A stretch of 25,095 nt of DNA from an uncultured virus (IMG/VR IMGVR_UViG_3300036398_005010). Taxonomy: Duplodnaviria > Heunggongvirae > Uroviricota > Caudoviricetes. How positions within the stretch are numbered: the first letter of the stretch is position 1; the number at the start of each line of letters is the position of its first letter. Location: IMG/VR virus record IMGVR_UViG_3300036398_005010, one strand, 5' to 3'. The position numbers and the translations under genes are program-made. This document shows, in pieces, positions 101 to 22,594 of the stretch. The notes under the pieces are model-generated. The model did no database searches. It was not told the DNA's origin and worked only from the letters and a program-made list of their open reading frames with translations.

Positions 101-1369
101 TCGGCCAAGAGCACCGTGATCGGGCTGCTCTGCTCGTGGCTGATCGGCCGGCACACCCTGGCCAAGCAGCTGCTGCGCATCCTCTACGTGTCGTTCAACA
201 TCGACGTGGCGCGCGGCAAGAGCCTGGCGATCAAGAACACGATCCAGTCGGGCGAGTACCAGGAGATCTTCCCCTGCGTGCGGCTCAGCAAGACCCGCAC
301 CGCCGATGAGCTCTGGTCGATCGACTTCGATTTCGCCGGCATCGATGTGCGCGGTGAGGACGCCTTCACGCTGGCCTGCGCCGGCCTGCAGGGCACGATC
401 ACCTCCAAGCGCTCGAGCCTGGTGATCCTGGATGACTTGATCAAATCCAAGAAGTCGATCAGCAACCCGGAGGTGCGCCGGGAGATGGAGGGCAACTGGA
501 ACAGCGTGATCGTACCGACGATGTTCCAGGGCGCCCGGGCGATCGCCCTGGGGACCCGTTTCCACTTCGATGACATGTTCGCCACGACGTTCGTCGAGAA
601 GAACGGCTGGCATGTGATGACCCAGGCGGCGCTGGACTTTGATGACGACGGCACGCCGCGCTCCTACTGGGAGGGGATGTGGAGCGCGCGCTACCTGCTG
701 GAGCTGCAGCGCAAGGACCCGATCGCGTTCGCCTACCAGTACCTCAACAAGGCGGTGCGCTCCACCGAGCTGGGCATGGCGCCGGACCTGTTCGTCAAGG
801 GGGTGGTGCCGGACGTCTTCGATGAGATCGGCGTCGGGATCGACTTCTCCTCAGGCCTGCGGGAGCGCAGCGACTACACGGTGTTCATGCTGGGCGGCCG
901 CGTGGACGACAAGGCCTACGTGATCGACATGCGCCGGATTCGCAGCATGGGCAACATCGAGAAGATCGAGGCCCTCTGCGACATGCTGCACGAGTGGAAC
1001 CTGGTCACCAAGGACGAGGCCGGCCGCTACCTGTCGACCTTCTCCGAGGTGGCGATCTGGCCGGAGTCGGTCGGCTACCAGAAGTCGTTCGAGGGGGACT
1101 TCAAGCGGGTGGCCTACCAGGAATGGGGGCTGACCAACCTGCGCGTGCAGCCGGTGACCGGGGTGCGCGGCGACAAGCTGGCCCGCTTCCGCGGCGTGAT
1201 GGGCCTGTTCCAGACCCACCGGGTGATCTTCAACAAGTACCGGGACTTCCAGGTGGTCTTCGATGAGGTGGTCAACATGGGGCACTCGTCCCATGACGAC
1301 TGCGCTGACGCCCTGCAGATCCTGCTGGACCGGCTGTTCCGCCGCGGCAACATCGAGGTGGAGTATTGA
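2..1369 (+). CDS. terL: Terminase large subunit, 5'-truncated by the window edge and intein-containing
   Basis: The frame is open from nt 2, so the GTG at 86 is not the real start. Motifs: Walker A remainder SAKST, Walker B LVILDD, coupling motif GTRF, RNase H-type nuclease motifs VGIDFS...SDYT and HDDCADA. Confidence 0.95.
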   Translation, partial: TGIRPAGEREIGCITVESPLQNFLIRDYVVSCNSAKSTVIGLLCSWLIGRHTLAKQLLRILYVSFNIDVARGKSLAIKNTIQSGEYQEIFPCVRLSKTRTADELWSIDFDFAGIDVRGEDAFTLACAGLQGTITSKRSSLVILDDLIKSKKSISNPEVRREMEGNWNSVIVPTMFQGARAIALGTRFHFDDMFATTFVEKNGWHVMTQAALDFDDDGTPRSYWEGMWSARYLLELQRKDPIAFAYQYLNKAVRSTELGMAPDLFVKGVVPDVFDEIGVGIDFSSGLRERSDYTVFMLGGRVDDKAYVIDMRRIRSMGNIEKIEALCDMLHEWNLVTKDEAGRYLSTFSEVAIWPESVGYQKSFEGDFKRVAYQEWGLTNLRVQPVTGVRGDKLARFRGVMGLFQTHRVIFNKYRDFQVVFDEVVNMGHSSHDDCADALQILLDRLFRRGNIEVEY

Positions 1370-1416: not shown

Positions 1417-3597
1417 ATGAGCCAGCCGACCCAGGACCGCTTCCGCCGGATCATCGAGGCGGCCCGCAACCGCGAGGGTGCCGCCGGCGTGGACACGATG
1501 ATCGTGTCGGGCCACCTGGCCCAGATGCGGCTGTTCATGATGCGGCAAGGGATCGAGTTCCTGCCGCGCCAGGACACCTACGGGTTCCGCAAGGCGTTCC
1601 TGGCCAAGGTCGTCGAGGAGAACGAAATCGATGCGCGCCTGGAGGGCGTGGTCGACGACTTCATCTCCGAGGGCAAGGGCCTGTGGTTCTTCCGGCCGGT
1701 GCGCGACAGCTACCGGATCATGTGGTTCAGCAAGGAGAACTACAGGGTCTACTACGACTCCCTGCAGGAGATCGAGGAAGTCGACCTGATCTACTCCTTC
1801 AAGGTGCGCCAGGGGCTGGGCGCGATCGCCGTGCAGGCGCCCGGCGGTTCGACCACCAAGTACGTGCGCCTGCAGGTCAAGCGCGACGAAATCATTGAGA
1901 CGATCAGCGAGGAGAAGCCGTCATTCGACACGCCGCTGATGTCGGTGATCGCTGCCAACAAGCGCACGGTGCGCAACAGCCTGGGCTTCGTGCCGGCGGT
2001 CGAGGCGTTCAACATGATGCGCTCCACCGGGATGGATGCGACCGGCGACTTCGACAGCTTCGCCGAGCACATCCTGGTGCATGACGCCCTGGTGCGGAAC
2101 ATCCGGGAGAACATCCGCTTCTACGGCAACCCCACCCTGGTCTCCAGTCGGCCGCGCCACGACCTGGTGGAGGCCGCTGATGGCGGCATGCCCCGGCGGC
2201 CGACGATCAGCAGCCAGGCGGGCTTCTCCGCCGAGGGGCGCCCGAGCACGCGCCACGACCTGACCGGTGCGCCGGCGGTGGGCGGAATGCGCGTGCCGCG
2301 GCTGATCACCAACATCGAGCCGACCGATCGGGTCAGCTACATCACCCCGAACGCGGTCAGCGGCGACCAGAACCTCTACGCCCGCCAGTACCGCGAGGAG
2401 ATCCGCAACGCCCTGGGCGGCGTGGACGAGCTGGGCATCTCCTCGGGGGCGACGGCCTACGAGATCAAAAGCCTGTTCGGGCGGGCGGCCACCACGGCGC
2501 TGCGCAAGTGCCGCGGGCTGCTCACCTACGGGCTGTGCAAGCTGCTGGCCCTGATGATCTTCCACGAGGAGCGCATCTTCCGGGAGAGCTTCTCAGCAGC
2601 GATCGGGCTGCAGCCGCCGGATGCGCCGATCCGCGAGCAGATCGGCGACGACGAGGCCTATGCCAAGGCCCTGGAGAAGCACGAGCAGGAGTACGCGGCC
2701 TACAAGCAGGAGCTGGAAGAACGCATCGAGGAGGCGATCGAGGAGCGCGAATTTCCCGATGGCGTTGTCGGCTTGATTCCCGACGGTGACCGGCGGGTGG
2801 ATTGGCGCTGGCGGGGGCCGGTGTTCGAGGAATCGACCGAGGACATCCTCAACCAGTCGATCGTCGTGCGCAACCTGCAGGAGCTGGGGGTCAATTCGAT
2901 CGAGGCGCTCAAGCATCTCTTCCCGAACAAAACCGACGAGGAGAGGAGCGCTATGCTCAATGGGTACCCGTTCAGGATGGCCCAGGCCACCCAACAGAGC
3001 ATTTCCACATTCCTCTCGCTCATCAACATGATGCGAGAGGTACCCCACCCGCAAGCCCCGGATCTACCGCTGCTTGCGGATGCTCGCCTCGATCTGGTTC
3101 CGTTCTTGTATCGAGCCTTTGATTTCCTCAAGCGTGAGCTGACCTATGCAGGACAGTACGGTGATTCCACAGGCTCCCCCGAGCCAGCCGAGCTCAATCC
3201 CATCGAGCGCGCCCGCGCCAACCTCGGCCTCGATGTCGCCGCAGGTGGCGCAGCCGAGCCTGACTTCGTACCCGACACAGCCCAGTCAGGCGCCGGCGGC
3301 GGATCCGTGGCAGCAGGCGTACCGCAACCTGACCGCCGGTTTGAGCGGGATGCCCGCCTCCCCGGCCCAGGCGCAACCCTGGCCAGCGACCCAGCAGGTC
3401 GAGGCCTACCAGGGGTTCTCCCCTTCCGCGGTGCCCAGCTACCCGCAGGCGCCCAGTCCGGTGATGCCGACCTGGCAGCCCCAAGCAATGCCGGCGTATT
3501 CGCCGACCTTGCCCAGCGCATGGCCCCAGAGCGCGCCCCTGGCCGCACCCGCCGTCGCACCTCTGGCCGCTCCAGCCGCCGCTCCAGCCGTCGGTGA
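1417..3597 (+). CDS. Portal protein (726 aa); the last ~150 codons overlap the next gene
   Basis: Lies directly after terL, has a suitable size, strong GC3 codon bias and a helical charged composition. Assigned by synteny, not by a diagnostic motif. Confidence 0.8.
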   Translation: MSQPTQDRFRRIIEAARNREGAAGVDTMIVSGHLAQMRLFMMRQGIEFLPRQDTYGFRKAFLAKVVEENEIDARLEGVVDDFISEGKGLWFFRPVRDSYRIMWFSKENYRVYYDSLQEIEEVDLIYSFKVRQGLGAIAVQAPGGSTTKYVRLQVKRDEIIETISEEKPSFDTPLMSVIAANKRTVRNSLGFVPAVEAFNMMRSTGMDATGDFDSFAEHILVHDALVRNIRENIRFYGNPTLVSSRPRHDLVEAADGGMPRRPTISSQAGFSAEGRPSTRHDLTGAPAVGGMRVPRLITNIEPTDRVSYITPNAVSGDQNLYARQYREEIRNALGGVDELGISSGATAYEIKSLFGRAATTALRKCRGLLTYGLCKLLALMIFHEERIFRESFSAAIGLQPPDAPIREQIGDDEAYAKALEKHEQEYAAYKQELEERIEEAIEEREFPDGVVGLIPDGDRRVDWRWRGPVFEESTEDILNQSIVVRNLQELGVNSIEALKHLFPNKTDEERSAMLNGYPFRMAQATQQSISTFLSLINMMREVPHPQAPDLPLLADARLDLVPFLYRAFDFLKRELTYAGQYGDSTGSPEPAELNPIERARANLGLDVAAGGAAEPDFVPDTAQSGAGGGSVAAGVPQPDRRFERDARLPGPGATLASDPAGRGLPGVLPFRGAQLPAGAQSGDADLAAPSNAGVFADLAQRMAPERAPGRTRRRTSGRSSRRSSRR

Positions 3598-9677: not shown

Positions 9678-11414
9678 TCAGTAGCTCCTGGAAATGACAG
9701 AACGGGTCACTCGCCCGCGGATGGCGGTGTCGAAGGGCGGCCCGCCGAGCTGGCCGCTGCGGGCGTCGATGCCCAGGCCACCGACAAACACCGCATTGCC
9801 GGCGTCGTCCTGGCCGCTAAACCTCACCCGCCCGCCGTTGCGTTGCACGATGCTGCGCTGGATGCGGCGGGCGACCCGGGCTGGTGGCACCCGGTAGAAC
9901 TCCACCCCCGCCAGTGGAGCGGTCCACTGGTGGTTGATGGCCGTGATCAGCGAGCGCAGCCGGCGCTGCACGGGCTCCACCGGGCTCGGAGCAGGACCCT
10001 GGCCCACCTCGAACCAGTAGTTGTCGAGGGTCGCCTTGAGTCGTGCCACCAGGGCCAGCACCATCGCCTCGGCGCCGGATGTGAGCTGGCCGCCGGCGAC
10101 CAACTGTGATGCCAGCCGGTCCCAGCTGGCCTTGAACGCAGCGTGGAAGTCGTAGGTGTAGACGCACACCCCGTCAAAGCGGAACATGCCCTCGGCGAAA
10201 TTCAGCATCGGCCGCTCGAAGCCGTGCACCAGGGATGCGGCGATCGCATCGAGGAACAGGCCAGAGTCCTTGCGGGTCAGGGCCTCAAAGCCGGCCGGCC
10301 AGGAGGCGGCGTTGTAGTTGGCTACCAGGAAGCCCCAGACGTCATCGATCAGGGAGACGCGTGCGGCATTGATGATCCCCGCCGCCCCGGACTGGCTGAC
10401 CAGCAGCGAGGGGTCGATCGTCAGCGGCCTGATCTGCTGGGTGCTGCCTTCGCTCCAGAAGGAGTAGTCGCCGAACTGGGAGCTGGAGCCCGACACCACC
10501 ATCTGGCCGCCATCGAGGCAGACGAAATGCCGGTGTGCGCCCACGCCGATGGCGTTCACCGGGTTGATGAAACCACGGTTCCTGGACACGTAGCCCATGC
10601 CGTTGGCGCTGCTGGGCGTGAAGCCCCAGGTCATGATGTTCGGGTAGACCGAGTAGGGCGACAGCACCGAAGCATCCGCCAGCACGCAGCCGCCGCCCTT
10701 GGGGTGGGCGGGGTTGCCGGCAGCGGCATCCATCGGCAGCGGTGTCGGCACCTCGGTGAAGGCGCTGCTCACGACGCAGTTTTGGCCGTAGGGCACACCA
10801 CCGGGGAGGATCGTGGCGCCAGGGCGGAACACCATCGCAAACCCCTTGGTGGGGTTGTCGAAGTCGTCGATTTCCCAGCCAGTGAATTTCAGGTTGACCA
10901 GGTGGGAGCCATTGCCGCAGCGGAACACGTTGCGCTGCTCGTTGCCGGCCGTGGGGCGAATGATCGTGCGCCGCTGGAAGTTGGCACCCCAGATCGTGCA
11001 GAAATCAGGCACGTCCAACTCACCGGGCGTGCTCAAGCCATCGAGCAGCACAATCGACCAGGGCGTCACCTGGGAGAAGGAGCGCACCTGGTCCAGGGCG
11101 TACTCGATGTCGCGAAAGGCGTTCCAGGTGCTGCGGCCGTTGCGCTGGTTGGTGCCGTCGCTGCGCACGAAGAACGTATTCGGCGTGCGGAATTGATCAG
11201 TCGACAGCATCGACTCGGTGACGCCGCCATTGGCGATCCCGAGCGTGCGATTGGCCGCCAAGGTGCCACCGCCTCCTAGGCCTGCTCCAGCGTTGATGCG
11301 GGTGCTCTTGAGGGCCCGGGTCTGAATATCCTCGTTGAGCGCAACGAGGTTGCCGTCGGCTTCCGCAAACGTCAGTGGCTGCCCCCTGTTCAGGCGCAGT
11401 GTCAGGATTGCCAT
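9678..11414 (-). CDS. Large tail/tailspike-like protein (beta-helix-like core with an inserted helical domain); start probably ATG 11414
   Basis: N-terminal virion-anchor motif LRLNRGQPLTFAEADGNL; FFVRSDG...NGRS...AFRDIE.AL (pectate-lyase-like entry motif); SSSQFGDY; SGQDDAGN..VG. A -10 box only 3 nt from ATG 11435 favours the second ATG. Confidence 0.75.
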   Translation of the reverse strand: MAILTLRLNRGQPLTFAEADGNLVALNEDIQTRALKSTRINAGAGLGGGGTLAANRTLGIANGGVTESMLSTDQFRTPNTFFVRSDGTNQRNGRSTWNAFRDIEYALDQVRSFSQVTPWSIVLLDGLSTPGELDVPDFCTIWGANFQRRTIIRPTAGNEQRNVFRCGNGSHLVNLKFTGWEIDDFDNPTKGFAMVFRPGATILPGGVPYGQNCVVSSAFTEVPTPLPMDAAAGNPAHPKGGGCVLADASVLSPYSVYPNIMTWGFTPSSANGMGYVSRNRGFINPVNAIGVGAHRHFVCLDGGQMVVSGSSSQFGDYSFWSEGSTQQIRPLTIDPSLLVSQSGAAGIINAARVSLIDDVWGFLVANYNAASWPAGFEALTRKDSGLFLDAIAASLVHGFERPMLNFAEGMFRFDGVCVYTYDFHAAFKASWDRLASQLVAGGQLTSGAEAMVLALVARLKATLDNYWFEVGQGPAPSPVEPVQRRLRSLITAINHQWTAPLAGVEFYRVPPARVARRIQRSIVQRNGGRVRFSGQDDAGNAVFVGGLGIDARSGQLGGPPFDTAIRGRVTRSVISRSY

Positions 11415-11438
11415 GCCTTGCAGTCCGCCCGCCATGGC

Positions 11439-11446
11439 AGTCTAGG
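11439..11446 (-). promoter_or_regulatory. Putative -10 box CCTAGACT for the minus-strand tail operon
   Basis: Recurring motif, 24 nt upstream of ATG 11414. Confidence 0.55.
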
Positions 11447-11590
11447 GCTGCATGCCAGGTGCCTCCGCCCAGGAGCGACCTGCACGGAGGTTCAGTTGCC
11501 GCGCCGGGGAAACGGCAAAAACCCAGGCGCCCTGGTGGTGCCGGCTCACCGGCTGCCCCTGCCGCCGTTCTTCTTCGGGGCGGGTCGAGT

Positions 11591-12208
11591 CTAGGCAAGC
11601 TGGCGCCGGGGCTCATCCAGTAGCTGCTTGCCGAAGCAAGCGCCGGGATGCAGCGCATGCCGCATCGAGCGGTGCACCTGGGGGCGCAGCAGGGCGGCCA
11701 GGTCCTGCATCGGCCGCGGCGCCAGCATCAGGGCCGGGCCGGGTCGCTCACTGATGACGGCCCTGATGTTGTGGTGACTGAGCAGGTACTCCAGCAGGAC
11801 AAGGGCGTCCTCCAGGGAGGAGACCGGCAGCAGGCCACTGCCGAGCTGCCAGCGGCCCACGTCCAGCCACAGGCTGGCGATGCCGCGCACGCCGGCCACC
11901 CGCAGGGCTTCAAGGCTGTAGCGCTGGCCATCGTCCACCTGCAGTAGCTCCATGGTCCGCTCCAGCAGAGGGCTGTGCAGCCGGGCGCGGCGCAGGTCGT
12001 AGTACCCCTGGCCGGGCAGCATGTCGACATCCACTCGGACGCTGCCGCTGCCGCTGCGCTGCAGCAGTCGCACCTGGTGCAGCAGGTAGGTGGACTCGGT
12101 TTCCAGTCGCCGCAGCTCCAGCCAGGGGCGCTGTCTGGCCCCCTTGCGTCGCAGCTGCCCGCCGCCCAGGGCGTAGCCGACCGCCAGGCTGACGAACTGG
12201 GCGTTCAC
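11591..12208 (-). CDS. LAGLIDADG_2-type homing-endonuclease-like protein, catalytic acids apparently lost
   Basis: Motif 1 VGYALGGG, motif 2 IASLWLDVG, and the family C-terminal signature LLRPQVHRSMRHAL. GTG start with GGAGGT RBS; GTGA overlap with the upstream gene. Confidence 0.75.
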   Translation of the reverse strand: MNAQFVSLAVGYALGGGQLRRKGARQRPWLELRRLETESTYLLHQVRLLQRSGSGSVRVDVDMLPGQGYYDLRRARLHSPLLERTMELLQVDDGQRYSLEALRVAGVRGIASLWLDVGRWQLGSGLLPVSSLEDALVLLEYLLSHHNIRAVISERPGPALMLAPRPMQDLAALLRPQVHRSMRHALHPGACFGKQLLDEPRRQLA

Positions 12209-12828
12209 TGACCACCTCCCGGCAGGAACAGCGATCGCCGGCTGACGGGCGCATAGGGCAGCAGCGCCGTCTGCAGGTGAGCCGCCTGCTGCTGGTTGAA
12301 CAGCAGGCGTGGCTTCTGGCGCAGGCGCTGCTGCGGATCCTGGTCCCAGATCTCACCCTGGGCGCCGGTGAGCATGCGCAGCCAGCCGGCCACCAGCAGG
12401 GCTTCATCCTCCTGGCTGCCGACGCGCTTGAGCAGGAAGCTGCCGCTGCTCAGGGGCCTGGCGTTCTCGGCCCAGAGCCAGGCCGCGGCCCGGCCGCCCA
12501 GCAGCTCGAGCGCCGGCTGGGTGACCTGGCGGCGGCGGCGGGGGTAGAGCAGGTTGTAGATCGGCTGAAGCGCATCGCTGGTGACCCGCAGCCGGCAGAC
12601 GGTGGTGCGATTGCCGCTCTCGCGGGTGCTGGTCTGGTAGCGCCGCAGGGTAGCGGTGGTGGGGATATAGCGGCGCAGCTCGGCGGCCTTCTCATCGAGG
12701 AAATCAATTTCGCCCTCGCTACCCTCAATCACAGCTCGTATTCGGTAGCGGGTTGGCGTGCGGATGCGGTGCAAGTGCCCGTCTGCCAGGAATAGCCCGA
12801 GCAGGCCACGCGTGGCATCAGTGTCCAA
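12205..12828 (-). CDS. LAGLIDADG_2-type homing-endonuclease-like protein (probable TTG start at 12828)
   Basis: Motif 1 LLGLFLADG intact; LQPIYNLLYP...VT..AL; motif 2 degenerate (AAWLWAENA); C-terminal LLPYAP.S. Confidence 0.8.
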   Translation of the reverse strand: MDTDATRGLLGLFLADGHLHRIRTPTRYRIRAVIEGSEGEIDFLDEKAAELRRYIPTTATLRRYQTSTRESGNRTTVCRLRVTSDALQPIYNLLYPRRRRQVTQPALELLGGRAAAWLWAENARPLSSGSFLLKRVGSQEDEALLVAGWLRMLTGAQGEIWDQDPQQRLRQKPRLLFNQQQAAHLQTALLPYAPVSRRSLFLPGGGQ

Positions 12829-12845
12829 AATTTCGCCCCCTGAAA

Positions 12846-12885
12846 TGCAGTTACTGTAAGACCTGGCAAGCGTCCCGCCTGCCAG
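12846..12885. promoter_or_regulatory. Divergent promoter region: overlapping -10 hexamers and a 5'-UTR hairpin
   Basis: TTACTGTAA (12851-12859) reads TACTGT on + and TACAGT on -. A hairpin CTGGCAaGCG-tcc-CGCcTGCCAG lies at 12863-12885. Confidence 0.5.
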
Positions 12886-12913
12886 AACCCTCACTATCGG
12901 AGCGTTTCATCCC

Positions 12914-14062
12914 ATGTGGATCGAAAATGACTTTCCGAAGGTTCTGGGCGCCGAGCTGTATCGGCCCCACCCTGCCTACGTGGTTGAGATGGCCGTGGAC
13001 CCCGTCGTGGTTCACGATTTCGCCGCTCAACCCGGGCAAACGGTGGCGCTGGATCGGTATCGCTACTGGGGTAATCCTGGCACTAAGGATTCCCGAGAGC
13101 GGACTGCTGATCAAACAATCGGCACCAGTTCTTCTCGGAACATTGTCAAGGACAAGGTTCATGTGACCTTGAAGGAATATACCGGACCCGCAGACCCTCT
13201 CAACGCGTCTGCGCCCAGTACGTTCAAAGTTGCGCGCGAGACGCTGGTCACCGCGCAGAGGCTTTTGCTCGATACTGGTTCACTTCCGGTGTTCCATCAG
13301 AGCATCGGCTCTATGACCCTGCTTGACGATTACCGCCGCTGGCGTGATCGTGTTTTCGCCGACGAGCTGTTCAAAGCCGAGGCGAATGGCAAGGCTGACT
13401 CAACCCAGGGCGGATATTACTTCCCCAAGGGCAAAGCCAAAACCAACGCAACCACGGTCGCAGCCTATGCTGCGGGCCAATCGGCCAAGTTCGGCGTCAA
13501 GGATGACCTCCTCGAGGTTGTCACCCAGATGCGCGAGCGGAACATCCCCACGTTCGCCGATGGCTACTACCGCTGCGTCGCCAGCCCTGCTGCGATGAAG
13601 CACCTGCGCCAGGACAACGACTTCCGCGAAGTGGCTCGCTACGCGGGTCAGGGGATCGTTGACCCGATGCAACCTCACCTGGCACCTAACGCAACCTTCT
13701 ACCTCGGTAACGGTCCTGCGTACGGTCAAGCCGGCTTCGTCGCTGGTCAGCCGACGATGCCAACGGGCTTCCTTTTCGAGGGAGTTCGCTGGTTCGAGTC
13801 GACCAATCTTCCCGAGAAGAGCTTCACTGCTGACATCAACAGCAATGTTGGCGGCAGTGGCAGTGCGACTTATCAAGCGGCCCCCATGCTGTTCTTCGGC
13901 ATGCAGTCGGTCGGTATCGGCACTGGCGGTGAGAACGCCCAGATCTTGCTGAACAACAACGACGACTTCAGTCGGTTTATCATCATGATCTGGTCCCTGC
14001 TGGCTGGCTTCGAGATCCTCAACAAGGATTTCGTGACGGTTGCCTACTCGTTCGTGTACTGA
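12914..14062 (+). CDS. Major capsid protein (HK97-fold, N4-gp56-like)
   Basis: 382 aa; E-loop-like QPGQTVALDRY, VTLKEY, YRCVASPAAMKHLRQD and FEGVRWFESTN. GGAG RBS. Heads a two-gene unit closed by a terminator. Confidence 0.88.
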   Translation: MWIENDFPKVLGAELYRPHPAYVVEMAVDPVVVHDFAAQPGQTVALDRYRYWGNPGTKDSRERTADQTIGTSSSRNIVKDKVHVTLKEYTGPADPLNASAPSTFKVARETLVTAQRLLLDTGSLPVFHQSIGSMTLLDDYRRWRDRVFADELFKAEANGKADSTQGGYYFPKGKAKTNATTVAAYAAGQSAKFGVKDDLLEVVTQMRERNIPTFADGYYRCVASPAAMKHLRQDNDFREVARYAGQGIVDPMQPHLAPNATFYLGNGPAYGQAGFVAGQPTMPTGFLFEGVRWFESTNLPEKSFTADINSNVGGSGSATYQAAPMLFFGMQSVGIGTGGENAQILLNNNDDFSRFIIMIWSLLAGFEILNKDFVTVAYSFVY

Positions 14063-21239: not shown

Positions 21240-21456
21240 GAGAAAGGGTAAGCCCCAGAATCAGCCCGAAAAACCCAAGCCACAGCAAGGGTTTTGGCGA
21301 TTGAAAAGGCCCTTGGTAAGGGAGAGGTCACGAGTTCAAGTCTCGTCAAGGGCTTCCTCAAAATCCAGCCAGGGACTACCTTTTGCCTCCGGTCACCTGG
21401 AGGCAGATGGAGGCATCTCGCGGCATTAGGGGTCAAAAAAGGGTAAATTTACCCTT
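21232..21456. repeat. Putative integrase arm-type/accessory sites flanking the att core
   Basis: AAGGGTAAG twice with a 12-bp period (21232, 21244); AAAACCC-N12-GGGTTTT (21270-21295); GGGTCA/GGGTAA 12 bp apart (21429, 21441); perfect 18-bp palindrome AAGGGTAAATTTACCCTT (21439-21456). Confidence 0.7.
21310..21354 (+). other. attP core: 3' half of tRNA-Thr(GGT), not a complete tRNA
   Basis: CCC-TTGGTAA-GGGAG (anticodon arm), AGGTC, ACGAG-TTCAAGT-CTCGT (T arm), CAAGGGC-T (acceptor 3' strand). No D arm or 5' half upstream. Adjacent to the integrase. Confidence 0.9.
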
Positions 21457-22594
21457 GGCGGAGGGCCAGGAGGTCATCGATCTGACCGTCGGAGCCCTGG
21501 CCGCCCGCTGCTCGGGAACCTTCGGGCGGGGGTTCCGGCTGCGGTCGGTGGGCCGGCGGCTGTACGTCCAGCTCAGCGGCCGCCGCGTGCCGCTGTACCT
21601 GGATTTCGACGCCGGTCCGGTGGACGTCCAGGAGCGGGCGCTGGCGCTGCTGCGCTTCCGCCACGACCACAAGGACCGGTTCGACTCGGACGCCTGGCAC
21701 GAGGCCTGTTTCGGGGAGGGGGTAAGAACGGGTAAAAGGTCGGGCCGCAAGGGCAAGAGCGAAAAGCACCGGCTGAACGTGAATGAGGTGGCGGCGATCT
21801 GGCAACGGTTCAAGCGGGCCCAGGGAGTGTCGGACGCCACGATCGAGCGGCACTACTTCAGCCACCTGCGCCGACTGGACCCGGAGCAGCCGCTGAGCGA
21901 CAGCTCACTGCTGCAGGCCATCGAGCAGACGAGTCCCAGGAGTCCCAGCAGAAGACGCGCTGTGGCTTTTCTGCGGCAGCTGTGTGAGCTGTGCGGACAA
22001 CCCTGGAACAGCGCCCTGCTGGATCCCCTGCAGAACGCCGGCATGGCGGTGGAGCACAGGCCCCAGGCGTTCTTCTCGGACGATGAGATCAAGAAGATCA
22101 CCAGCGGCGGCCTGAGTGCCCCCTGGCAGCGGATCGTGGTGCTGCTGGCGGTCTATGGCCTGCGACCCTGGGAGGCCTGGGTGGCTGAGCCCTCAAAGGA
22201 TCGCCCGGACTGCATTTGGATTCCGGCCGGGAAGACCAACCGCCATGGCACCACGCCGCCGCGTCAGGTGCCGCCGTTTCACCCGGAATGGGTGGAGGAG
22301 TTCCGGCTGCCCCAGCTCTGGGCCAAGCCGCTGCCATCCCTGAGCAGCAAGTCCCAGGCCGGCGCCCGGGTGAACCAGCACCTGCGCCGCCATGGCCTGA
22401 TCGGCGGGGAGGGGCAGACGTCCTACGGGTTCCGGCATGCCTACGCCCGGCGACTGCATTCGCCCCGCTACCGGGTGACCGATGCCCACGCCTCACTGTT
22501 CATGGGACACACCGTGGCGGCCCACCACAAGGCTTACCGCAGTTGGCTGGGAGGAGAGGATCCTATTGGGATCTACCTCGGCAGCCCTGGCTAA
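21407..22594 (+). CDS. int: Tyrosine recombinase (phage integrase); start uncertain (21383 TTG, 21407 ATG or later)
   Basis: Catalytic set YGLRPWE (R), GKT (K), FRHAYARR (HxxR), MGHT (H) and HHKAY (Y). Next to the tRNA fragment. Confidence 0.92.
   Translation: MEASRGIRGQKRVNLPLAEGQEVIDLTVGALAARCSGTFGRGFRLRSVGRRLYVQLSGRRVPLYLDFDAGPVDVQERALALLRFRHDHKDRFDSDAWHEACFGEGVRTGKRSGRKGKSEKHRLNVNEVAAIWQRFKRAQGVSDATIERHYFSHLRRLDPEQPLSDSSLLQAIEQTSPRSPSRRRAVAFLRQLCELCGQPWNSALLDPLQNAGMAVEHRPQAFFSDDEIKKITSGGLSAPWQRIVVLLAVYGLRPWEAWVAEPSKDRPDCIWIPAGKTNRHGTTPPRQVPPFHPEWVEEFRLPQLWAKPLPSLSSKSQAGARVNQHLRRHGLIGGEGQTSYGFRHAYARRLHSPRYRVTDAHASLFMGHTVAAHHKAYRSWLGGEDPIGIYLGSPG

Follow-up and report, generated by a model that had tools for sequence, protein, structure and literature searches.

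The 25,095-nucleotide DNA of an uncultured virus (IMG/VR record IMGVR_UViG_3300036398_005010), which at its full length is called the window here, comes from a freshwater cyanophage with two I-SceI-like LAGLIDADG genes beside its major capsid gene. These genes, termed A and B, are found together and intact in each of 68 loci of a large clade of related cyanophages, evolve under purifying selection, and occupy a genomic slot that in a sister clade holds the gene of a nuclease with an unrelated fold. We tentatively favour the reading in which A and B form a fixed nuclease cassette, with A cutting and B binding without cutting, that has been kept for a nuclease-based role such as competition between phages. 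Homing genes are expected to invade a population, become fixed and then decay, whereas A and B are intact across genomes that have drifted from 41% to 68% GC. In this pair one can study in nature why a fixed endonuclease persists, whether through rivalry among co-infecting phages or because the phage’s own cycle has work for it, and what an apparently catalytically dead paralogue contributes. It also provides a resource of about 70 natural versions, diverged from one another, of a compact enzyme resembling I-SceI.

Gene A (positions 12205–12828, minus strand) encodes an I-SceI-like two-domain LAGLIDADG protein of 207 amino acids (aa), and gene B (11591–12208, minus strand) a second I-SceI-like LAGLIDADG protein of 205 aa. 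The major capsid gene (12914–14062, plus strand; 382 aa; match to phrog_1357, E 2.3e-19) lies head-to-head with A. All 17 viral loci that were selected through B show this same order, in which the capsid gene and the A-B pair point away from each other. Loci were then selected through the capsid gene to avoid circularity, using the best 80 of 424 matches to the window capsid and the best 80 of 387 matches to the capsid of locus L088, the one exception among the loci selected by the window capsid. The resulting 157 loci were reduced to 101 informative ones by setting aside 37 in which the upstream sequence was shorter than 1400 nt or the first exon could not be located, together with 19 duplicates. 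A and B are present in 68 of these, and the remaining 33 carry in the same head-to-head slot an open reading frame (ORF) of about 120–133 aa for a NUMOD4+HNH_3 endonuclease. Empty, A-only or B-only slots were not found in any of the 101. In all 68 A+B loci, A is a single ORF that spans its profile from position 2 or earlier to at least position 195, and B likewise runs from position 2 or earlier to at least position 160. Thus, the pair is fixed rather than patchy, and the patchy presence with empty target sites that is expected of a mobile endonuclease gene is absent from these loci.

The slot next to the capsid 5ʹ end is a nuclease slot, and its occupation in the sister clade by a nuclease of unrelated fold favours a nuclease-type role over that of a regulator. 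A capsid tree of 79 rows has a single change between the A+B and HNH states, with the deep branches of that tree lacking resolution. Two sample prefixes each include both cassette types (L113 and L145; L041 and L102). The only cultured relative is the Synechococcus phage S-EIVl, whose capsid protein is 64% identical to that of the window and whose slot holds neither A-B nor HNH, the genes upstream being co-oriented hypothetical ORFs. A tblastn search of a phage GenBank collection gave no match to A or B, and the capsid gene was held in common only with S-EIVl.

Both genes have been maintained for a long time. Ratios of nonsynonymous to synonymous divergence (dN/dS, or omega) were calculated by the Nei-Gojobori method for the 1035 pairs of 46 distinct loci, 70 of which had a usable dS for both genes. 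Among the 21 unsaturated pairs, in which dS of A was below 0.7, omega was 0.00–0.14 for A, 0.02–0.13 for B and 0.00–0.07 for the capsid gene, all far below 1. The HNH gene of the sister clade is similarly constrained, with a median omega of 0.07 (15 pairs). GC content at third codon positions (GC3) ranges from 0.29 to 0.90 in A and from 0.29 to 0.92 in B, and it tracks the GC content of the rest of the locus (r of 0.98 and 0.97, respectively; loci of 41–68% GC). Taken together, the low omega values, the intact ORFs and the tracking of GC3 speak decisively against decay, support a long-term function, and show that A and B are long-resident genes that have been inherited vertically. The preliminary description of this DNA, which was made from its sequence alone, had named fold, synteny and dN/dS among the checks that could refute its idea, and the outcomes of all three are in its favour, in support of genes that are maintained and not decaying.

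The fold of both proteins is predicted with confidence, with AlphaFold predicted local distance difference test (pLDDT) scores of 90.9 for A and 92.8 for B. The top Foldseek matches of both are I-WcaI (6x1j) and I-SceI (A: E 1.4e-11, template modelling (TM) score 0.68; B: E 5.2e-8, TM score 0.73). I-DmoI, the bI3 maturase (2ab5; rank 15 for A and 43 for B) and WhiA (rank 46 for A and 41–45 for B) follow at lower ranks. Judged from these models, each protein is a complete two-domain LAGLIDADG monomer that would need no partner half, and the heterodimer that had been proposed is therefore unnecessary. The description of both as LAGLIDADG_2-like is borne out by the predicted fold, whereas the Pfam scores of the window proteins against LAGLIDADG_2 (PF03161) are 21.2 bits for A and 12.8 bits for B, both under the curated cut-off of 25 bits. 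A match at E <= 0.01 is obtained for 25 of 31 relatives of A and 5 of 32 relatives of B, and the A protein of one relative reaches 28.8 bits. The homology of A and B to LAGLIDADG_2 is real but distant, and a Pfam scan found no other domain in either protein.

A and B are homologous to each other from end to end (hhalign probability 95.7%, E 9e-9), are basic (median isoelectric points (pI) of 9.5 and 9.6), and consist of the LAGLIDADG core alone, with no helix-turn-helix domain at the C-terminus. Invariant residues number 27 in an alignment of 31 A sequences and 30 in an alignment of 32 B sequences. The B family is small, with 87 matches at E <= 1e-3 and 68 at E <= 1e-10 in a profile search of 1.84 billion representatives. 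Neither A nor B matches a PHROGs family, prokaryote genomes yielded no relative to the B profile, and a literature search, which covered few subscription journals, returned no paper on the pair. The A/B locus is the sole LAGLIDADG_2 match in each of four nearly complete records, of which two have terminal repeats, and likewise in G001, a partial record that is near-identical to the window and was used in place of its assembly. A 405-aa protein, P0130, was considered as a fusion of A and B and rejected, because it consists of the C-terminal part of B joined to unrelated sequence.

The acid of a LAGLIDADG motif is its penultimate residue, and the WhiA protein of T. maritima has Arg and Gly in that place, according to a partial text of PMC3384342. 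Motif 1 of A in the window reads LLGLFLADG and motif 2 reads AAAWLWAEN, with the acids D38 and E143 numbered in a 229-aa ORF that includes codons upstream of the likely start. The corresponding motifs in relatives are LLGLLLADG and AAAWLWAEG. Across the 46 distinct loci, D38 is kept in 45 and G39 in all; residue 143 is E in 45 and D in one, and the residue after it is G in 42 loci and N in the window. Motif positions 3 and 7 are expected to hold small residues, and A138 and A142 fit this in showing no variation. The first strand in the model of A begins at residue 40 in domain 1 and at residue 145 in domain 2, so that D38 and E143 each stand two residues earlier.

The motifs of B differ from this pattern. 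Motif 1 in the window, AVGYALGGG, has no acid, and motif 2, IASLWLDVG, has D116 at position 7 and V117 at position 8; the strands of the B model begin at residues 18 and 119. Motif 1 ends in G-x-G among the relatives, where x (residue 16, G16 in the window) is K in 22 loci, R in seven, V in seven, G in four and some other residue in six, and is never acidic. Motif 2 ends in D-x-G, with D116 at position 7 in 45 of 46 loci and a variable position 8. In a register that is uncertain by one residue, A probably keeps both of its catalytic-position acids and B neither, which makes two of four in total. The preliminary description, which counted only one acid kept among four, is thus probably wrong on this point, and its idea of a non-cutting complex fits B but is unsupported for A.

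The resemblance to I-SceI and I-WcaI rests on the two-domain fold (TM scores of 0.68–0.73), on the similar length of about 205 aa in A and B and, depending on register, on the acid that ends each LAGLIDADG helix of A. With canonical LAGLIDADG_2 proteins, A and B also have in common a C-terminal RP-x-hydrophobic-H-x-SM motif. However, A and B are only 12–15% identical to the solved enzymes, B lacks both acids, and the genes lie outside any intron, come as a pair, and are fixed in a phage clade instead of patchy.

In the reading that we prefer, A and B are diverged members of the I-SceI-type (LAGLIDADG_2) family whose fixation beside the capsid gene took place in a single large clade of cyanophages related to S-EIVl, with vertical inheritance ever since. 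A is most likely still a site-specific DNA endonuclease. B most likely binds nucleic acid in a sequence-specific manner without cleaving it, either in cooperation with A or as a restraint on it. Selection would most likely have kept this resident, free-standing homing-endonuclease cassette because it cuts co-infecting relatives with the other cassette or another allele in the region near their capsid gene. Cutting such rivals would favour the cassette’s own flanking capsid module, either as interference competition or as marker exclusion. Goodrich-Blair and Shub are said to have described endonuclease competition of this sort in 1996 for SPO1 and SP82. An intron endonuclease of phage PhiPA3 aids phage competition, as related in a partial text of PMC11620839, and sets a precedent in which a phage gains from its homing endonuclease when relatives co-infect. 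Unlike A and B, that enzyme is encoded in an intron of a jumbo phage and is a member of a different nuclease family.

Several points weigh against a cutting cassette. Both HMMER and hhalign align WLWAEG of A without gaps to the canonical WLWMDDG, which places E143 (and D116 of B) on the first D, and the motif 2 register thus carries an uncertainty of one residue. A search of the PDB by sequence with the A profile, the B profile or an intron ORF gave no LAGLIDADG match, and the register is therefore not anchored on I-SceI. If the profile register is right, A would be without the canonical acid of its second motif and might fail to cut both strands. Median omega over all 70 pairs is higher, at 0.20 for A, 0.43 for B and 0.04 for the capsid gene, partly because the distant pairs are near saturation of dS, and the pairs are phylogenetically non-independent. 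The capsid tree reveals no transfer between the A+B and HNH clades, and the clean match between cassette and capsid tree could also be produced by co-conversion of the adjacent capsid gene, so that it speaks neither for nor against homing. An interrupted capsid gene is found in six of the 68 A+B loci and in none of the 33 HNH loci, too few to link introns to A, and a gradient of sequence identity around A, described below, could stem from ordinary recombination around a highly conserved gene. In classical theory a fixed homing endonuclease should decay; persistence of the fixed pair would require an added benefit, which is only assumed here. Cleavage, target and benefit are matters that sequence alone cannot establish, and the role given to B is a guess.

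An unlikely but serious alternative is domestication, in which the slot has to hold a site-specific nuclease or DNA binder for the phage’s own needs, supplied either by A and B or, through non-orthologous displacement, by the HNH protein. Its job might be genome processing or packaging, the start of replication or recombination, or the control of late genes. A slot that is never empty (68 A+B and 33 HNH of 101), the strong purifying selection on both occupants, vertical inheritance with full GC amelioration, the basic character of both proteins, and the compact divergent control region that the pair has in common with the capsid gene are all in keeping with this explanation. However, S-EIVl, with its 64% identical capsid, has no such gene in the slot, the NUMOD4+HNH_3 type of the sister clade is typical of homing endonucleases, and the layout of the capsid leader persists where HNH replaces A-B. 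HNH proteins reportedly assist terminase (described by Kala et al. in 2014), but in the window the terminase gene is about 10 kb away from the slot.

A model for domestication is WhiA (DUF199), which resembles the pair in its LAGLIDADG fold and its vertical inheritance, and probably B in the replacement of its acid positions, the latter as given in partial text from PMC3384342; in B these positions hold K, R, V or G in motif 1 and a variable residue in motif 2. Unlike WhiA, neither A nor B has an added helix-turn-helix domain, A probably keeps its acids, and both proteins rank nearer to I-SceI. It is also conceivable, though rather doubtful, that the slot is an obligatory one, in which a homing-derived nuclease serves the phage life cycle and a single exchange of folds has occurred between the LAGLIDADG pair and NUMOD4-HNH. 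B would then be a dead paralogue in the manner of WhiA, with the task of directing or restraining an active A and possibly of shielding the phage’s own site. The life-cycle role of such a nuclease may lie in genome processing, packaging or recombination-dependent replication.

The gap between A and the capsid gene bears on the earlier suggestion that the pair controls capsid transcription. As had been reported, this gap measures 85 nt in the window, up to the capsid ATG at 12914, and it is 81–98 nt long in all 46 loci. From the A side it holds in order the Shine-Dalgarno sequence of A (AGGGGG, 12836–12841, minus strand; TAGGG(A/C/T)GAAA in relatives), a conserved CTATAGTA box, a stem-loop (12863–12885, plus strand), the Shine-Dalgarno sequence of the capsid gene (GGAG, 12899–12902, plus strand) and the capsid ATG. 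The box has the form TTACTGTAA in the window (12851–12859, with no strand assigned). It had been read as a -10 element on both strands; it is present and aligns with the conserved CTATAGTA, and is likely to be a -10-type element for the capsid gene. A sigma-70 consensus scan of 11300–13200 found no promoter, the TTACTGTAA box included, and CTATAGTA does not recur elsewhere in the window at one mismatch.

The window segment with the leader stem-loop folds at -13.7 kcal/mol (z of -3.2), and single-sequence folds of relatives give z below -2 in 24 of 41 (median -2.0). Its stem sequence varies among relatives while pairing is kept, as seen in the aligned stems of L019–L098 and L100–L172. RNAalifold on the capsid leader returned no consensus pairs, MAFFT having misregistered the stems. 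The HNH clade has a similar leader layout, with box, covarying hairpin and Shine-Dalgarno sequence, in which the stem is its own and many loci have a conserved TAAGTCGAA loop. Therefore, the leader belongs to the capsid gene and is independent of A-B, and no observation connects the pair with the capsid promoter. The stem-loop may serve to stabilise the late mRNA at its 5ʹ end. Lake metatranscriptome contigs from four runs (a relative about 97% identical; depth 3–6) span the capsid gene, with starts at 12877, 12879 and 12913. The first two of these starts, from two runs, fall inside the stem-loop and hint weakly at a capsid mRNA that begins just after the box. No contig from these runs covers A-B, at a depth too shallow to bear on the expression of the pair.

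The 5ʹ end of the capsid gene is a hot spot for introns in relatives of the window, with up to three group I introns per gene (L065). Rfam gave 13 group I intron matches near this end in 9 of 11 loci searched. The intron regions are L047 2691–3900, L050 1280–2500, L016 170–2800, L054 2398–3500, L065 1950–3850 and L077 1–1032, and the splice junctions of L047 suggest that its first intron follows codon 4. Two inserts of L016, one with a LAGLIDADG ORF and one after codon 283, had no match in Rfam. Some introns carry antisense HNH ORFs (L047, L050 and L016), and others canonical LAGLIDADG_2 ORFs with GDG and MDDG motifs (L054, L077, L016 and L065). Derivation of these LAGLIDADG ORFs from A was considered and rejected. 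They match the A profile at E 7e-19 to 1e-13 in a search space of four sequences, far weaker than the E of about 1e-80 reached by true A genes in a larger ORF set, and they therefore represent a separate lineage.

The locus also bears possible signs of recombination. In other phages, homing-endonuclease genes cluster beside capsid genes and mark boundaries of exchange, as reported in a partial text of PMC10448857. In six locus pairs, identity peaks at the 5ʹ end of the capsid gene, the gap and the 5ʹ end of A and then drops into A and B, and the synonymous divergence of A-B is often above that of the capsid side. Between L082 and L092 (locus positions of about 2800–3250), the middle of A is 88–90% identical, compared with 99–100% on the B and capsid flanks. 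The differences in this patch are mostly synonymous (dN 0.007, dS 0.37), and it is a short tract imported or converted inside A.

In an improbable explanation, A and B are purely selfish, free-standing homing genes of no benefit to the phage, kept only by continued homing into the empty or rival sites of a large mixed population. Intron-borne endonucleases lie nearby, a rival nuclease uses the same slot, and a site beside a conserved essential gene is typical of homing endonuclease genes, to judge from the partial text of PMC10448857. The same partial source describes free-standing, collaborative homing in the case of cyanophage psbA, which resembles the present locus in that a free-standing gene abuts an essential gene, with 5ʹ group I introns in some relatives here. 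The names attached to that case are F-CphI and S-PM2. An endonuclease of the collaborative kind cuts where the intron of its neighbour gene inserts. However, collaborative-homing genes are patchy, whereas A-B, known here from sequence, is fixed and under strong purifying selection. Moreover, none of the 101 informative slots is empty, the capsid tree has a single cassette switch, and B, with its degenerate motifs, is conserved as strongly as A.

It is quite improbable that B, and perhaps A, act on RNA, as a LAGLIDADG maturase or RNA binder on capsid introns or on the leader hairpin. B is very basic and without catalytic acids, the bI3 maturase is among the fold matches, and both kinds of candidate substrate exist, as group I introns in the capsid genes of relatives and as the covarying hairpin of the capsid leader, 22 nt from where the gap starts. 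Maturases such as bI3 have the same fold, and have lost endonuclease residues and gained nucleic-acid binding, as stated in partial text of PMC3384342. However, maturases are normally encoded inside the intron that they assist, whereas A and B are free-standing. The capsid gene of the window has no intron, only 6 of 68 A+B loci have an interrupted one, and the HNH clade has a similar leader hairpin in the absence of B. That A and B are decaying remnants of homing endonucleases, as the motifs of B without canonical acids and the low Pfam scores might suggest, is scarcely credible given full-length single ORFs in 68 of 68 loci, omega of 0.00–0.14, 27 and 30 invariant residues in A and B, and confident fold predictions.

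The two genes are also compactly arranged. The preliminary description had correctly noted two intact ORFs, a good ribosome binding site, and a GTGA overlap in which the stop of A meets the start of B (12205–12208, minus strand). The minus-strand ORF of A extends from 12205 to 12894 (229 aa), and its most likely start is the TTG at 12828 (207 aa), because most relatives begin at the aligned L/M-D-T. The codon at this aligned start is TTG in 39 of the 46 distinct loci, GTG in six and ATG in one. The GTG at 12894 was rejected as the start, as it would leave only 19 nt to the capsid ATG and overrun the conserved non-coding box. B starts with GTG, with the Shine-Dalgarno sequence GGAGG (12215–12219, minus strand) located 6 nt upstream within the 3ʹ end of A. 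A and B are probably co-transcribed in the direction away from the capsid gene, translation of B is probably coupled to that of A, and the conserved TTG start would hold the dose of A low.

A overlaps the start of B in all 46 relatives, by 1–4 nt in six and by 47–161 nt in 40. In these 40 loci (L027, L034, L042 and L056 among them), the junction stop of A is lost and A reads 47–161 nt into B in another frame. Conservation of the resulting C-terminal tail of A (WDVS-IRSARTELL...) may only mirror the N-terminus of B. Downstream of the pair, a weak terminator-like hairpin with a T run (11513–11535, minus strand) lies 56 nt past the stop of B and suggests that A-B is a separate two-gene unit; the terminator scan found this one candidate against a shuffle mean of 0.7.

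Codon usage is genome-like, as had been claimed, with GC3 and codon adaptation index (CAI) of 0.84 and 0.68 for A and 0.89 and 0.73 for B, compared with CAI of 0.43–0.82 for other genes of the window. Also as claimed, there is no intron or intein context, in that Rfam has no match in the window and the capsid ORF is uninterrupted. The capsid gene itself has a GC3 of 0.71 and a CAI of 0.55, which is below its neighbours (GC3 0.84–0.90) despite its being the most conserved gene of the region.

The wider setting of the pair is a phage structural module with genes for terminase, a portal-like protein, lysin and tail-fibre-like proteins in addition to the capsid gene. In the HNH-type sister clade, a full sigma factor of the sigma-70 family (regions 1.2, 2, 3 and 4) is encoded about 2 kb upstream of the capsid gene, at 161–1102 (plus strand) in L100 and likewise in L105, L109, L113, L116, L124, L127 and L135; none was seen in the window. 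Among the structural and tail-fibre genes of the window, a 403-aa ORF (21383–22594, plus strand) matches the integrase family phrog_1 (E 2.2e-12).

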